From a phage: 64,000 nucleotides of DNA. The notes beneath the pieces were generated by a model. It ran no database searches and had not been told where the DNA came from. It was given only the letters and a program-made list of their open reading frames with translations. Both the position numbers and the translations under genes were made by a program. Shown in pieces: positions 2,034 to 51,664 of the stretch (its first letter is position 1; each line of letters begins with the position of its first letter). The stretch lies in the sequence record PQ478073.1; one strand, 5' to 3'.

Positions 2034-2041
2034 TATAAATA
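2034..2041 (+). promoter_or_regulatory. T4-late-like promoter box TATAAATA
   Basis: Exact TATAAATA directly after clamp stop. Confidence 0.4.
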
Positions 2042-2305: not shown

Positions 2306-2605
2306 ATGAAAATTAAAATGATTAATGATTACGTTCTTGTTCGACAAATTGAAGCACAGAATAAAAGTACTGGTGGTATTATTCTAGGTAATGTTGAACC
2401 ACCATGTATTGGGATGGTAATTTCCGTTGGTCCAGGTAAAATTCTTCCGAACGGACAACTTGCAGAACATAATATTAAAGAAGGTGATATGGTTGTGTTT
2501 GGTCGTTCATCTTTGAACACACCACTGACTGAAGATCTTGGTGGCGGCGAAGATACATATTATGTAATGAAAATCGAAGAGATTTTTGGTAAGAAAAATG
2601 GCTAA
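2306..2605 (+). CDS. groES: co-chaperonin GroES (cpn10) homolog
   Basis: DYVLVRQIEAQNKSTGGIILG ... GMVISVGPG ... IKEGDMVVFG matches GroES pattern; GGAGG RBS 2293-2297; first ATG of longer track ORF is internal. Confidence 0.85.
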   Translation: MKIKMINDYVLVRQIEAQNKSTGGIILGNVEPPCIGMVISVGPGKILPNGQLAEHNIKEGDMVVFGRSSLNTPLTEDLGGGEDTYYVMKIEEIFGKKNG

Positions 2606-3323
2606 AAAGAAATTTATTCCATTTTGGATGGTCCCTGCTCACTGGGGACTTTCTGGAAAGGCAAAAGAGATAGCTAAAGCATACTACTACAATGATGATT
2701 ATGAAGCTGATATGAAAGTTGCTGAATTGACATATCTAACTCCATATGAAGTTGAAGTGGCCCAATTGGATATTAAAAAGAAATATAGCGTAATTGGAGA
2801 TTTGGAATATCTAATTGCTGTACTTGATGTTGAACTAAAATATTCTAAAATTACTCGTGAACAGTATGATGTTAAAGTTCTTGATGCAAAACTAAGTATT
2901 GGAGTTATTACAGAAAAAGAATATGATATGGAAATCATTGAGTTAATGCCAGAAGGTGATGAAAAAAGGCTTAAGGCTATTGAATTTGCATATCGTTACG
3001 ATGAAATCACACAAAGTGAATATTCTAAGGAAATATACACACTTCGTAAAGAACCTTGGATTGATTTGGATGTTGTTCTTGATCCTGAAACTAATGAAGT
3101 TGAGTTTGTATTTGACTATAATGAATATTTCTGGAAAAAGTTGAAAGCTGAAGGTCATCCAGGAAATGATGAAGAAGAAATTATCGATAACTTTGTGAGA
3201 GACTTGGGGCGTAAACTTGCTACGGATGATTTCAGTGATGATTACGACACAAAGCTGGTGAGTGCGAACGAAGGATTAGACAAGCTACCTGGTTTGCCTG
3301 AAGGATTTCGTTCATATAGATAA
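2598..3323 (+). CDS. hypothetical protein (241 aa)
   Basis: First ATG of TTG-initiated track ORF; followed by bidirectional terminator. Confidence 0.55.
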   Translation: MAKKKFIPFWMVPAHWGLSGKAKEIAKAYYYNDDYEADMKVAELTYLTPYEVEVAQLDIKKKYSVIGDLEYLIAVLDVELKYSKITREQYDVKVLDAKLSIGVITEKEYDMEIIELMPEGDEKRLKAIEFAYRYDEITQSEYSKEIYTLRKEPWIDLDVVLDPETNEVEFVFDYNEYFWKKLKAEGHPGNDEEEIIDNFVRDLGRKLATDDFSDDYDTKLVSANEGLDKLPGLPEGFRSYR

Positions 3324-3330
3324 CATATAA

Positions 3331-3362
3331 AAAAAGGAGAGCAAATGCTCTCCTTTTCTTTT
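3331..3362. terminator. bidirectional rho-independent terminator
   Basis: A-tract, GGAGAGC-aaat-GCTCTCC stem, T-tract; between convergent genes. Confidence 0.8.
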
Positions 3363-46356: not shown

Positions 46357-46388
46357 GGAAGACCTTATGGGTCTTCCTTGTCCTTTAT
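46357..46388 (+). terminator. rho-independent terminator
   Basis: GGAAGACC-ttatg-GGTCTTCC then T-rich. Confidence 0.7.
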
Positions 46389-46395
46389 ATAAATA
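46388..46395 (+). promoter_or_regulatory. T4-late-like promoter box TATAAATA
   Basis: Exact TATAAATA about 40 nt upstream of ATG 46434. Confidence 0.45.
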
Positions 46396-46433: not shown

Positions 46434-48827
46434 ATGACAACTTTTACCCCACGATGGGATATAAAAGCCGATGCTCGATATATACAAGAAGGACAAGACA
46501 TTCTTGTGCGTTTGAGTATCAATAAAGAAAGCACAACGGATGATAGCTATGTATTAAATGAAGATGAATACTTAGAAATGATTCTTAACATACAATGCTT
46601 GGATAGTTCAGGTGCTGTATTTGATCCAGAACCACATTATACTTTTTATGTTGGTAATGACGAAAATACTTTTGTTCCTATTTCAGATGGTACAACTGGT
46701 AATAAATTAGTAAATGGTAAGCATAAGTGTAAAATCAGCAAAAATGAATTTAACTTATCTGCAAGTACTAATAGTGAAGATGTTTATTTTATAAAAATTC
46801 ATTGTAAAAATGATGGAACCTATAATAATACAGAAATTATAAATTTTTATTTACAAGCAGTAAATGTTATGTATTTTGGAAATATTTCACCAAGTGGTGT
46901 TCTAGGATTAACTGATACATCAATAACATATGATAGTCAAGAAGTTTGGGTTACACCCGGAGTTGAGATTGGTGATGACAAAAAGCTTTATTGTATTGGT
47001 GATGTTGAGTATGGCTCCAACAGTACATTGTTCGTTCAAGGATTTGGAAGAAGACGACCTTTCATTTTGGGTACTGACATGACTACTGATATTACACCTC
47101 GTGTCTTTTTTCCAGCATATCGTTTGATTGACATGGATATTTCTGAAGTTCCAGATAAACATATTACGAATGATTTCGCAGTATTCAAGCCAGCACAATC
47201 AACATGGCCTATTTCTGGTATAAACAAAGAAGTAAAAGTTAATATTCAAAATAGAAATGGTAATTTAATTGACACTGGAATGGTGTTCAACCCAAATGGG
47301 CAATTATTGCAAACATTTTTATATGACTCAGATGCTTGTGATGCATATTTTAAAGTTGAGATTGTTGATATATTAAGTACATACACCGAAGAAAGTGAAA
47401 GGTTTGCTATCAATCAACGATATAAAGCATATCAAATGTGGGTTTGTCCTGAAGACATAGATACTATATATTCTATTTCAGAAAAACCACTACCCAATCA
47501 TTTATATCAATTAAAAGATAATGTTGTGTATCCATACGTAATTAGTGGTGAATACGATAATGGAACAATTAAGCCCGTTTATGATAGTAGTGATTGGATT
47601 GATTTAGGATATTATGACTCTACTCTTGGTGATAATATCATTGGTATGCAAAAAATGTTCAGGGTTTTGATAAACGCAGAAGAAGGTAATAATATAAACT
47701 TTATTACTGATAGTGATTTAGGAACCATACATGTTGGTGAATATTTTGGAGACAGTATATATCCTAAAATTGAAACTGATAGCTCTAATCAAGTTTCGTA
47801 TGTTTTAGATGGTGGTGATGACATTAGAAAGTATGGGATAGATTTGACACCAGATGGATATCTTGTAGGAACTGCATATGCCAAAAGTATTGATTTTAGT
47901 GAAAATGATGATATTAAATTATCGTTTTATGTTAAAGCATTTAGTACTGAAGGTGGTGAAGCAAGAAAAATATTTAACCTTAAGATTGTAAGAGGATTCG
48001 GACAGAATTATTTGAGTGCACATGTATTACCTTCGGTTGCATTTGAGAGAGAATGGTTTAAATGTATAAGTACTTCATCATTCACTAATCAACTATTTTT
48101 CCGACAATCTGACAATAGGTATGGTCTTCAGAAAATACCGAAGATGTTATTGAAAGAAAACTTCCTAAGTCAAACGTATCCATATACGAACCTTTCTGAT
48201 ATCAAGAAAGTATTGAGAAATAGTATAATTAACCCAAATGGAACTACTATTCCAAATGGAAAATTTAAAATGGTAATGGGTAATTATAAAATAATATCAG
48301 CACTTGACAATCAAGGTAACTTACAATATGATCTATTATATAGAGAGGTTTTACCTGAAGGTTCTTTAGTATCTGTATCCAAAAATCCACGTCAATATAC
48401 TCAGATCGACAACGGTCAGCTTGGTGAATTATTTGGTTTACGACAAAATATTTTTCAGGCTATTGGTGAAGACACAACCAACTTAGTAAAAGACCCAACC
48501 GATTTACAAAATCGTGGTCTATACGTTGATGCGATACCAAGTATCAGTGATGAAATGCTTGATACGGTTCCAAGATTTATGAATCACCCATACATTGAAG
48601 ATGGTATACAGAAAAAATTCATGCCTATCATTCCAGTTGCATATTGTCAACCAGGGAAAGGTGAAGCATTTTTCAACACTTTACTTCAGAACAATGAACA
48701 TGGTACAATGGTAGGTGTAGAGTTCGAAATCACATCGGTTGAATTCGGATACTTTTCGCATGAATCAGTGAATTATGTTTCAGATACATTTTTGATTACA
48801 TTGCAAAACAATAACATAGGAGGTTAA
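46434..48827 (+). CDS. large hypothetical protein (797 aa), likely late/structural
   Basis: GGAG RBS before ATG 46434; late-type promoter box; Asn/Gly/Thr/Tyr-rich. Confidence 0.55.
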   Translation: MTTFTPRWDIKADARYIQEGQDILVRLSINKESTTDDSYVLNEDEYLEMILNIQCLDSSGAVFDPEPHYTFYVGNDENTFVPISDGTTGNKLVNGKHKCKISKNEFNLSASTNSEDVYFIKIHCKNDGTYNNTEIINFYLQAVNVMYFGNISPSGVLGLTDTSITYDSQEVWVTPGVEIGDDKKLYCIGDVEYGSNSTLFVQGFGRRRPFILGTDMTTDITPRVFFPAYRLIDMDISEVPDKHITNDFAVFKPAQSTWPISGINKEVKVNIQNRNGNLIDTGMVFNPNGQLLQTFLYDSDACDAYFKVEIVDILSTYTEESERFAINQRYKAYQMWVCPEDIDTIYSISEKPLPNHLYQLKDNVVYPYVISGEYDNGTIKPVYDSSDWIDLGYYDSTLGDNIIGMQKMFRVLINAEEGNNINFITDSDLGTIHVGEYFGDSIYPKIETDSSNQVSYVLDGGDDIRKYGIDLTPDGYLVGTAYAKSIDFSENDDIKLSFYVKAFSTEGGEARKIFNLKIVRGFGQNYLSAHVLPSVAFEREWFKCISTSSFTNQLFFRQSDNRYGLQKIPKMLLKENFLSQTYPYTNLSDIKKVLRNSIINPNGTTIPNGKFKMVMGNYKIISALDNQGNLQYDLLYREVLPEGSLVSVSKNPRQYTQIDNGQLGELFGLRQNIFQAIGEDTTNLVKDPTDLQNRGLYVDAIPSISDEMLDTVPRFMNHPYIEDGIQKKFMPIIPVAYCQPGKGEAFFNTLLQNNEHGTMVGVEFEITSVEFGYFSHESVNYVSDTFLITLQNNNIGG

Positions 48828-48828
48828 T

Positions 48829-49140
48829 ATGTTTAATCCGTTTTTTGACCCGTCTGGAATGACGGAAAAAGAACTACAGTTAAAAATTAATGAACAGTCA
48901 ATGCGTTTAACTTCTGCTCGTGCTGCTGGCCTAAGCGACATGATTATTGGTAATATGCAAACTGTCTTAAATCAATGTTATGCTGAACTAGAACTTCGCC
49001 AAGGACAAAAAGAAAAAACTGTTTATGACGAAGAAGACCCATGTATCTTCGATATGGATTCATATCTAACTGACAACGAAGAGGCCCAGAAGAAGAAAAA
49101 TGAAAGTACAAGGAAACAGATTTATAAGTCCCAATGGTGA
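48829..49140 (+). CDS. hypothetical protein (103 aa)
   Basis: AGGAGG RBS. Confidence 0.5.
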   Translation: MFNPFFDPSGMTEKELQLKINEQSMRLTSARAAGLSDMIIGNMQTVLNQCYAELELRQGQKEKTVYDEEDPCIFDMDSYLTDNEEAQKKKNESTRKQIYKSQW

Positions 49141-49618
49141 TGTGAAATGTAATCTTAACGCAGTTGTTTATGCAATCAATTGCGGTGCAGATATCCAGTA
49201 CTTACAATTGCAGGAAATTGATGAACCTGAAAGGTTGAAATTCAATGATAACTGTAAAAAATTTGGCTTAGAACAACGTATGCTGGATTATACAATTGAG
49301 CATGATAAAAATCATGAACTGTGGCGATATGATCCAGTATACGACAATATAAATCTGCGTGACTTTTTCTTACAAAAATGCACATCCGATGAAGCACGAA
49401 AACGTGTTGAGTATGAACTTGATTTATATGAATATTATAATATGACAAAGCTACTAAGATGTATGATATGGCTTGTTGATTATATGGAAGAAAATGAGAT
49501 CTTTTGGGGTCTAGGTCGTGGAAGCTCTGTTGCATCATACTGTTTGTTTTTGATTGGACTACATATGGTAGATTCATTGAAGTACGAACTTGATGTTAAC
49601 GAATTTTTGAAATGGTAG
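49100..49618 (+). CDS. DnaE-like protein, N-terminal module of a split mini-DnaE (no PHP domain)
   Basis: IFWGLGRGSSVASYCLFLIGLHMVDSLKYELDVNEFL aligns to DnaE [34 protein letters not shown]; ORF ends just before where the catalytic DxD would follow. Confidence 0.5.
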   Translation: MKVQGNRFISPNGDVKCNLNAVVYAINCGADIQYLQLQEIDEPERLKFNDNCKKFGLEQRMLDYTIEHDKNHELWRYDPVYDNINLRDFFLQKCTSDEARKRVEYELDLYEYYNMTKLLRCMIWLVDYMEENEIFWGLGRGSSVASYCLFLIGLHMVDSLKYELDVNEFLKW

Positions 49619-49627
49619 AAAAACATG

Positions 49628-49636
49628 TGATATAAT
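49628..49636 (+). promoter_or_regulatory. extended -10 promoter TGaTATAAT, left arm of 10-bp inverted repeat
   Basis: TGTGATATAA at 49627-49636 and TTATATCACA at 49650-49659. Confidence 0.45.
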
Positions 49637-49681
49637 GTTTATTGTAGGCTTATATCACACATACAATAAAAGGATTTTGAT

Positions 49682-50026
49682 ATGTCTAAACATACAACTT
49701 ATCGTGGTACAACAATTGACATGGATATGCTCAAGTACCAAAATCAACATCAGGTAGCATTAGGTAATGCTAATTTAAACGCACGTGGTGATAAAATCGG
49801 TTCAGGTGGAACAATTATTAAAACTCGTGAAGAGTTGATTCAAGAAAAAGAACGAGAAATGCAAATTCCTGATTATATCCCTGAACATCAACTTCATAGT
49901 ACTGAACATGGTACGGATGAAGTATGGGATGATGAGAGTTTTGAAGTTAAGCCCGAAGAACAAGAAGCTGAGGTTTCTGAAGAGAAGAAAGCACCACGTC
50001 GAGCTAGAACCAAAGATCAGGAGTAA
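49682..50026 (+). CDS. hypothetical protein (114 aa)
   Basis: AAGGA RBS. Confidence 0.5.
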   Translation: MSKHTTYRGTTIDMDMLKYQNQHQVALGNANLNARGDKIGSGGTIIKTREELIQEKEREMQIPDYIPEHQLHSTEHGTDEVWDDESFEVKPEEQEAEVSEEKKAPRRARTKDQE

Positions 50027-50034
50027 TATATTAA

Positions 50035-50361
50035 ATGACTAATAAAGTAATGACTGCATGTAAAGGTAAAGTACTGGTAACTGAACTGGAACATGGTGAA
50101 CGCAAAACAGCAGGTGGTATCGTTTTAACAAACGATGACGGTAAAATTAGAGGTATTCGTTCTCGCTGGGCAAAAGTTTATTCTGTAGGCGAAGACATTA
50201 CTGATATTAAAGAAGGTCAATGGATTTTAATTGATCATGGTCGATGGTCAAGAACTATTGAAGTTGATGGTATTGAATTAAACTTGGTTGATTATCCAGC
50301 CGCAGTTAGTTTAGTTTCAGATGAAGATCCACGAACTAAAATGCTAACCTTTGGTCGTTAA
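50035..50361 (+). CDS. GroES-like (cpn10 fold) protein, second divergent copy; possible gp31 analogue
   Basis: KVLVTELEHGERKTAGGIVLT and VGEDITDIKEGQWILIDHG follow GroES pattern. Confidence 0.5.
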   Translation: MTNKVMTACKGKVLVTELEHGERKTAGGIVLTNDDGKIRGIRSRWAKVYSVGEDITDIKEGQWILIDHGRWSRTIEVDGIELNLVDYPAAVSLVSDEDPRTKMLTFGR

Positions 50362-50417
50362 TAAAATATAATTAAAGCTCGGATGAATATCTGGGCTTTT
50401 TATTTGGACAGATTTTG

Positions 50418-50687
50418 ATGATAACTGATGATGGAAAATTTAGTTTCAAGGATGTAACATTAGTATCTAAAAACGGAAGATTCATGTTTGAAGATAGAAA
50501 AAATACCAAATATGTATATGAAGTTTCACATGATATGTTTAAAGTTTTATTAGTTGCATCAGCCCAAGCTGAAAGTACTGGGATTAAAAATAAGGCAAAT
50601 TCTTTTAATTTTTTATTAAATCAATTGGAAATGACAGAAGAACTTTTCACGGCTTTATTATATAATTCAGCCGATTGGATTCTATAA
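50418..50687 (+). CDS. hypothetical protein (89 aa)
   Basis: No RBS; first ATG of TTG-initiated ORF. Confidence 0.35.
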   Translation: MITDDGKFSFKDVTLVSKNGRFMFEDRKNTKYVYEVSHDMFKVLLVASAQAESTGIKNKANSFNFLLNQLEMTEELFTALLYNSADWIL

Positions 50688-50710
50688 CACGTACACATAA
50701 GGAAATACAA

Positions 50711-51664
50711 ATGACCACACTATGGACTGAAAAATATCGCCCACAATCAATGGAAGATTATGTATCAAAAAACGATGCACTACGCCAGAAAATGGAAGAA
50801 TGGATTAAGACTGGTGACATTCCACATATTGGGTTTTTTGGCCCAGCAGGAACTGGTAAAACATCTGCGATCAAAGTACTAATTAATGGACTAGTTCAAA
50901 ATGGACACCTTGATCCAAGTGATGTGACCACGCTTAACATGTCCGATGAAGGCATTGATGCTGTTCGTGACAAAATCGATGCCGCAGCAAAGCTATCATG
51001 TTTTGGTAGATATCGTATTTTTGTTCTTGAAGAAATGGAGCAGATGAACCACAAAGCACAAGGTAGTTTGAAACGTGTAATGGAAGACTATCATGAAAAT
51101 GCTCGCTTTATTTTAACAAGTAACGAACCACATAAAATTCAAAAACCTATCATTTCTCGTGTTCAAGTTATTACAATCGAAAAGCATGATATGGAACAAT
51201 TCATGACTCGAATTTATAATATTCTTCTAGCAGAAGGTGTTGATTTGAGTAGTGATGATAGTGTTGAACAAGTTCAAAAGTACATCAATGCTTCCTATCC
51301 TGATTTCCGTAAAACACTAAACGTATTGCAAAGTTCAGTTGTTGATGGTAAGCTAGTAAAACTTGAAGATAGTATTGAAAATTCAGCAGGGTATCGTACT
51401 GCAATTGTTGAAGCATTAAAGGCAGGCAACATTCGCCAAATGCGTGAACAAATTGTACAAAATATCCCTGATGATGAGATGGATGCATTTTTCTCTTACT
51501 TGTACAGAAATGCTGAAATGTTCAGTACTGATGAAATCACACTGATGAAGATTAAAGTTAAAATTCGTGATGCAGTTGTTAAGCAAGCAACCGTATCAGA
51601 TCGTGAAATGAATCTTAGTGCTTTACTGTGTGAAATTGACCTAATTTGTTCGGGGAACATGTAA
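50711..51664 (+). CDS. 44: clamp loader large subunit (T4 gp44-like, RFC-type AAA+)
   Basis: EKYRP box, Walker A GPAGTGKTS, PDFRKT block; AAGGA RBS before ATG 50711. Confidence 0.85.
   Translation: MTTLWTEKYRPQSMEDYVSKNDALRQKMEEWIKTGDIPHIGFFGPAGTGKTSAIKVLINGLVQNGHLDPSDVTTLNMSDEGIDAVRDKIDAAAKLSCFGRYRIFVLEEMEQMNHKAQGSLKRVMEDYHENARFILTSNEPHKIQKPIISRVQVITIEKHDMEQFMTRIYNILLAEGVDLSSDDSVEQVQKYINASYPDFRKTLNVLQSSVVDGKLVKLEDSIENSAGYRTAIVEALKAGNIRQMREQIVQNIPDDEMDAFFSYLYRNAEMFSTDEITLMKIKVKIRDAVVKQATVSDREMNLSALLCEIDLICSGNM

Follow-up and report, generated by a model that had tools for sequence, protein, structure and literature searches.

Two GroES-like co-chaperonins of different architecture, one roofed and one roofless, in a Rak2-like jumbo coliphage

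Analysis of a 64,000-nt stretch of phage DNA (sequence record PQ478073.1, in the following referred to as the window) revealed two co-chaperonin genes of different architecture, namely ORF A (2306-2605, + strand, stop codon included; 99 aa), which retains the roof hairpin of cellular GroES, and ORF B (50035-50361, + strand, stop codon included; 108 aa), which holds KVLVTELEHGERKTAGGIVLT, lacks the roof hairpin and features a lengthened mobile-loop segment in the manner of T4 gp31. The reading that we favor, and to which we assign an about even chance of being correct, is that B could act as a gp31-type lid and likely partner of the capsid protein, while A could represent a late GroES-type lid, with both proteins forming heptamers on the GroEL of the host. 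If this division of labor is true, Rak2-like jumbo phages would provide a natural example of one host GroEL that is re-programmed by two viral lids, in which the influence of lid geometry (roof, loop length) on the range of clients could be tested directly, an issue that the work on T4 gp31 did not settle.

Both reading frames are preceded by a Shine-Dalgarno sequence (GGAGG 5' of the start at 2306 and GGAG 5' of the start at 50035). A sequence-only reading had described 2306-2605 as a clear GroES homolog, and profile comparisons supported this assignment: ORF A matched Pfam Cpn10 (PF00166; gathering cutoff 21.1 bits) across residues 2-96 with 61.8 bits (E 6.5e-17) as well as phrog_3188 'co-chaperonin GroES' (8e-28), and hhalign aligned the A family to E. 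coli GroES with a probability of 98.5% (E 2.4e-15, score 82). For 50035-50361, which had been proposed as a second and more divergent cpn10-like protein, the Pfam Cpn10 match was marginal and partial (24.8 bits against the cutoff of 21.1, E 2.2e-5, residues 8-66 only) and was accompanied by a match to phrog_931 'head morphogenesis' (1.5e-20, profile positions 1-81 of 109). Judged by these scores, chance is excluded for the Cpn10 matches of both ORFs. The two proteins share 33% identity over 63 residues, and searches with the family HMM of A or B against the 542 six-frame ORFs of the window recovered only A and B, each being the second-best match of the other's HMM (E ~0.01), while no third cpn10 gene was found in the window with three family HMMs. 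ORFs A and B are both single-domain, and the window encodes no tandem (Cpn20-like) cpn10 polypeptide. Monomer models of both proteins displayed the Cpn10 beta-barrel; thus, the cpn10 fold on which the earlier claim for 50035-50361 had been made to depend was found in its structure model. Foldseek returned bacterial GroES structures as top matches of the A model, and the best structural and profile matches of both ORFs were all co-chaperonins.

To compare the architectures, two segments were measured in family alignments: the strand-loop-strand segment, comprising the first strand, the mobile loop and the second strand, and the roof segment. The roof spans 18 residues in GroES and likewise in the A family (25/25), 9 residues in the B family (87/89) and 11 residues in the gp31 family (25/25), while the strand-loop-strand segment amounts to 36 residues in GroES, 34 in the A family, 40-41 in the B family and 42 in the gp31 family. 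This comparison of loop and roof length with GroES and gp31, which had been suggested as a check, places A with GroES (34 and 18 residues) and B with gp31 (40-41 and 9 residues). The roof beta-hairpin is present in ORF A and absent from ORF B; compared with GroES, the mobile-loop segment has lost 2 residues in the former and gained 4-5 in the latter. With the roof hairpin gone and the mobile-loop segment extended, ORF B combines both hallmarks of gp31, for which a loop of 22 residues versus 16 in GroES, the loss of the roof loops and a cage enlarged by ~8% have been described (PMC6318259). Roofless viral co-chaperonins have also been reported from viromes by Marine et al.

Within the loop, the glycine and hydrophobic tripeptide are kept as GGIIL in A and GGIVL in B and are conserved in both families. 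In ORF A, the motif is followed by a family-invariant Glu-Pro-Pro-Cys (EPPC) for which the family alignment shows no counterpart in E. coli GroES, whereas the loop motif of ORF B, AGGIVLT, has exactly the sequence with which E. coli GroES binds GroEL. The extended loop of ORF B contains five invariant or nearly invariant positions (D34, G36, G40, R44 and W45) and was modelled with a pLDDT of ~80 rather than as a disordered segment.

Profile comparisons gave a consistent placement for A and a less clear-cut one for B. The T4 gp31 sequence used, which is identical to PDB 1G31, matched phrog_931 with 3.7e-50, so that ORF B shares its PHROG with gp31, although this match of B is not fully independent, as Rak2-like members may already be part of phrog_931; ORF A reached only 0.033 against the same profile. 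In hhalign, the A family scored 28.9 against the gp31 family (probability 52%) and, on the basis of these alignments, sits firmly with cellular GroES, to which ORF A is 39% identical (E. coli GroES, 67 columns). The B family yielded a score of 42.5 with the gp31 family (probability 91.9%, E 7e-7), 38.4 with the A family (probability 88.4%) and 26.5 with E. coli GroES (probability 33.8%). By these values ORF B appears roughly equidistant and leans to gp31 over A only marginally (42.5 vs 38.4), and the alignment with gp31 is confined to residues 3-63, leaving the C-terminal half of B without a match to gp31. A phmmer search of the PDB with ORF B did not reach the gp31 structure 1G31 and returned chloroplast Cpn11 as best match (E 0.066); the link between B and gp31 therefore rests on profiles and fold. 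Of the earlier proposal that the pair comprises one canonical and one capsid-specialised variant, or copies with different client specificities, the split in architecture is thus borne out by roof, loop and profiles, while the capsid specialisation and the client specificities would have to be read from that architecture.

The closest reference systems are T4 gp31 and RB49 CocO (listed with PDB 2CGT) and bacterial GroES (PDB 1AON). ORF B resembles gp31 in the short roof segment, the long loop segment and the assignment to phrog_931. However, the identity between the two amounts to only ~16-26%, the profile alignment is limited to the N-terminal 60 residues, and ORF B has no equivalent of the C-terminal tail that is conserved in gp31 (KFVTCHYK..C.YK). 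In addition, the extra loop residues are located N-terminal of the GGIVL position in gp31 and C-terminal of GGIVL in ORF B. ORF A is similar to bacterial GroES and Cpn10 with respect to its full-length Cpn10 match, roof hairpin and GGI(I/V)L loop, but differs in being phage-encoded, in its shorter loop segment with the invariant Glu-Pro-Pro-Cys and in its position in an apparent late operon, where it overlaps a virion protein gene. The same gene pair occurs in a related genus, as tblastn detected orthologs of both genes in phage CBB (CBB_131 and CBB_268), ~50 kb apart as in the window.

The sequence surrounding the two genes shows 99.9-100% identity to that of the Asteriusvirus phages JP4, PBECO4, 121Q, slurp01, phAPEC6 and ELP-22, all of which are Rak2-like jumbo coliphages of ~350 kb. 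GenBank records name A 'co-chaperonin GroES' and B 'head morphogenesis protein', and in some records both are termed GroES or chaperonin. Two GroES-like ORFs were also reported in the Rak2-like phage CBB by Buttimer et al. 2017 (PMC5259590), who noted the pair and suggested GroES mimicry, whereas a roofed/roofless split, promoters or fusions were not discussed. Given the public annotation of both genes and their mention in print for CBB, the gene pair was already known, and what the present analysis adds is a clearer classification of A and B together with the lead on tandem fusions described below. The text of the phAPEC6 virion-proteome paper mentions neither 'GroES' nor any phage chaperone; in the part of the CBB structural table that is accessible, no entry stands between CBB_260 and CBB_270, so that the GroES-like CBB_268 is unlisted there; and in the PA5oct paper, consulted for expression data on the B homolog, chaperonins are not mentioned.

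The two genes differ in distribution. By tblastn, ORF B matched 89 phage records covering all Rak2-like genera, PA5oct-like Pseudomonas phages, Atu_ph07, SCTP-2 and others. ORF A matched 83 records, mainly enterobacterial Rak2-like phages and two Xanthomonas phage records, along with unrelated GroES genes and bacterial contaminants, and no Pseudomonas phage was found among them. All 34 Escherichia records were matched by both A and B. On this tblastn evidence, B is the copy that is conserved clade-wide and A is a sub-clade addition. A search of 1.84 billion representatives with the B-family profile retrieved 533 clusters at E ≤ 1e-3 and 265 at E ≤ 1e-10, and judged from these matches the B family is sizeable and separate from the bulk of GroES. 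With regard to the origin of the pair, a recent duplication was rejected, as A scores 82 against cellular GroES and 38 against B. A recent capture of ORF A from a host was likewise rejected, as the identity to enterobacterial GroES is only ~39% (Salmonella GroES, 65 residues, tblastn).

ORF A is embedded in a compact gene unit. The T4-type late-promoter motif TATAAATA is located at 2034-2041 (+), 56 nt upstream of a Zn-ribbon ORF of 68 aa (2098-2304, +; Pfam Zn_ribbon_8, E 1.2e-10; phrog_13665) that heads the unit, ends 1 nt before ORF A and is probably co-transcribed with it. Downstream, a virion structural protein gene (2598-3323, +; phrog_13349 'virion structural protein', 6e-120) starts within the last 8 nt of ORF A (2598-2605), an overlap that suggests translational coupling. 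In CBB, BF, GAP32 and Yersinia and Erwinia phages, tblastn matches of A often span both the GroES-type and the structural-protein gene, as would be expected if the two genes were neighbors there too. A strong hairpin of 14 pairs with T-rich flanks (3329-3360) closes the unit containing A.

Across the whole window, the motif TATAAATA shows no enrichment (4 sites versus 10.5 expected). However, in the adjacent head module (L004), all five sites (1117, 5767, 7654, 13612 and 14821) precede late or structural genes by 30-47 nt, and the genes behind TATAAATA sites include those for capsid, baseplate hub and endonuclease VII. Of the four sites in the window, two are placed in this way as well, one before the A unit and one before the virion structural gene at 46434, which results in seven of nine sites 30-56 nt upstream of a same-strand gene start for both regions combined. 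As a rough estimate, ~4% of strand-specific positions have a start codon no more than 60 nt downstream, and by this estimate the observed placement is far beyond chance. The motif was thus retained as a late-promoter motif on account of its position relative to gene starts and not of its abundance, and its placement fits the late sigma factor annotated in ELP-22. For CBB, a gp55-like sigma factor and an ATAAATA late motif have been described (PMC5259590).

Directly upstream of this late motif and just 3' of the DNA polymerase gene, we also observed an ORF of 243 aa (1302-2033, +; phrog_12062, function unknown) that is preceded by two good sigma-70-like promoters. It gave no Pfam match, and a sequence search of the PDB as a check for a sliding clamp returned zero matches. 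As the CBB paper states that a gp45 clamp homolog was not found in the Rak2-like group (PMC5259590), this ORF may be considered a candidate for a divergent sliding clamp.

ORF B is situated in a replication-type neighborhood. It lies between a free-standing ORF of 172 aa in which only part of a DNA Pol III alpha NTPase domain is present (49100-49618, +; PF07733, E 1.9e-9) and a clamp loader gene, a placement that is conserved in distant relatives. An ORF of ~157-175 aa with the same Pol III alpha fragment precedes the B-type gene in the uncultured relatives L025-L029, the copy in L025 being 36% identical, and this shared position indicates that the fragment is a maintained small gene and not a decayed polymerase. 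Directly upstream of B, a 114-aa ORF of unknown function (49682-50026, +; phrog_14844, 6e-64) has a homolog in L025 that occupies the equivalent place (38% identity, E 1e-11). A candidate sigma-70-like promoter with a TG-extended -10 element (TTGAAA-18-TATAAT, 49607-49636, +; 11/12 positions match) lies intergenically ahead of the B unit and resembles the divergent RpoD-like class of CBB (TGAAACG as -35; PMC5259590), although sigma-70-like matches occur in the window at background level, so that this promoter is only plausible; the CBB 'middle' -35 motif TGAAAYG and the combination TGAAA-N-TATAAT were not enriched in the window. An intrinsic terminator-like hairpin (50374-50399, +; -12.6 kcal/mol, z-score -2.8) follows 13 nt after the stop codon of B. 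The second well-placed TATAAATA site of the window (46388-46395, +) lies 38 nt upstream of the virion structural gene at 46434, and the window scan found no terminator-like site between 46388 and 50374, which makes late read-through into ORF B possible.

A tblastn search with E. coli GroEL matched 252 phage records, and the organism tally contained no Escherichia group, though 34 records would rank in the top ten. Asteriusvirus phages hence apparently depend on the GroEL of the host, and a phage-encoded GroEL is, on the basis of this tally, probably absent. For a phage without a GroEL of its own, host GroEL would be the most likely partner to be capped by A and B. With respect to the client, the major capsid protein of ELP-22 (391 aa) matched Pfam Gp23 with E 1.3e-89, its gene being located ~9 kb upstream of A and outside the window. 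T4 gp23, the client of gp31, has a mass of ~56 kDa, and the simple argument of cage size is weakened by the 391 aa (42 kDa) of the presumed client of ORF B, for which an enlarged cage may not be needed. The mass of 42 kDa was reported for the capsid protein of phAPEC6 in its virion-proteome paper, and the CBB paper gives 35% identity between the CBB capsid protein and T4 gp23 (PMC5259590). According to the T4 literature, lid specificity is not explained by size alone (PMC3012670).

Taken together, the division of labor that we favor would proceed as follows. ORFs A and B would each cap host GroEL as a single-domain cpn10. ORF B, roofless and with its long loop, would be made from the fixed replication-module locus, apparently with its own sigma-70-like promoter and terminator, and would help to fold the gp23-family capsid protein as gp31 does in T4. 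ORF A would be transcribed late from the TATAAATA promoter together with the virion structural protein and would supply general or late-client lid capacity. That both proteins form heptamers and bind GroEL is inferred, as are the times at which they are expressed and the way in which clients are shared between them.

An alternative that we regard as rather unlikely is that A and B co-assemble into hetero-heptameric GroEL caps, similar to chloroplast Cpn10/Cpn20, with the mixture as the working form. In chloroplasts, more than one cpn10 type serves a chaperonin, and hetero-oligomers of seven GroES-like domains have been documented (PMC5780408); the window differs in that both genes are single-domain and far apart. 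The main argument in favor of mixed lids stems from uncultured relatives, in which multi-domain proteins rank among the top matches of the B-family profile. Assignment of their domains with Pfam, the family HMMs and E. coli GroES revealed several arrangements. A roofed GroES-type domain is joined to a B-type domain in P0212 (209 aa, one contig), and in the reverse order in P0235 (221 aa, one contig; L024, 2.8 kb). P0324/P0350 (200 aa) combines a roofless GroES-type with a B-type domain and was found in at least two JGI samples as well as in Logan and ENA, while a B-like and a B-type domain are combined in P0200 (208 aa, 2 JGI samples), a divergent cpn10 and a B-type domain in P0201/P0349 (214 aa, 2 contigs) and three B-type repeats in P0199/P0351 (362 aa, 2 contigs). 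Several of these architectures were thus recovered from two or more samples, and the P0212 and P0235 fusions are uninterrupted ORFs on their contigs. The tandem cpn10 loci, whose products resemble chloroplast Cpn20, are L025:922-1840, L024:1867-2532, L026:5001-5603, L027:5001-5627 and L029:2496-3140.

Four of the fusions (P0212, P0350, P0200 and P0349) reside at an orthologous locus with the order Pol III alpha fragment, small ORF and cpn10 gene, followed further downstream by a clamp-loader-type AAA+ gene for P0350, P0200 and P0349, where the contig is long enough. This arrangement matches 49100-51664 of the window, and the L025 flanking genes share 36-38% identity with their counterparts there. 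On the 2.8-kb contig of P0235, the Pol III alpha, small-ORF and clamp-loader markers were not found. In L025, a separate gene for a roofed Cpn10 of 99 aa overlaps the start of the fusion gene, which would allow a lid of 3 x 2 + 1 = 7 domains. By a Rosetta-stone type of argument, the three fusions that join both kinds of domain (P0212, P0235 and P0324/P0350) hint that a GroES-type and a B-type domain can work within the same lid, and they suggest, contrary to the favored division of labor, that the two may cooperate instead of each having its own clients. The more general notion, that the clade needs two kinds of cpn10 per GroEL lid, encoded separately in Asteriusvirus and repeatedly fused in uncultured relatives, appears doubtful to us; if true, mixed lids would be phage analogs of chloroplast Cpn10/Cpn20 that are tuned for very large virions.

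Several observations argue against mixed lids as the working form. In the window, A and B are 47.7 kb apart and their promoter types are apparently different. Each of the two roofed-plus-B fusions (P0212 and P0235) was recovered from one contig only, and a search of IMG/VR gave no relatives of P0212. With P0235, IMG/VR yielded 18 loci, all of which contain only single-domain B-type genes and show no GroES-type ORF within 3 kb. Moreover, PA5oct-like phages carry B, while A was not detected in them by tblastn, so that ORF B can evidently work alone.

A second alternative, which we consider improbable to a similar degree, assumes that A and B are interchangeable GroEL caps that raise or extend the supply of lids during a long infection after host shut-off. 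It would be in line with the finding that all essential folding in E. coli can proceed with gp31 or RB49 CocO in place of GroES (PMC3012670), with the GroEL-binding loop motif that is kept in both proteins, with their differing promoter contexts, which suggest differing timing, and with a capsid protein of only 42 kDa. However, in T4 the replacement is not reciprocal, as GroES cannot substitute for gp31 in the folding of gp23 (PMC3012670), and in Rak2-like phages the roof is present throughout the A family (25/25) and absent from 87 of 89 members of the B family, down to ~47-58% identity. That both architectures are kept distinct across the whole Rak2-like group points to non-equivalent roles of A and B.

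Finally, it seems very improbable that one of the two proteins is not a GroEL partner at all, with B serving in the replication module or A being a decoy or assembly factor of the virion protein encoded by the overlapping gene. The glycine and hydrophobic tripeptide are correctly placed in both loops, the best matches in structure and profile searches are co-chaperonins throughout, and B-type domains occur fused to bona fide GroES-type domains. What could be taken in favor of such a role is the conserved position of B between the Pol III alpha fragment and the clamp loader, its unusually well-conserved extended loop (pLDDT ~80), the invariant EPPC of the A loop, which was not observed in E. 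coli GroES, and the presence of the GroES fold in dehydrogenases.

As a minor observation on the uncultured relatives, clamp-loader-like AAA+ genes close to the cpn10 locus (L027:5697-7943 and L029:5133-6497) displayed faint intein-splicing matches, and the AAA+ gene in L027 appears to be split around a TnsA-like ORF.
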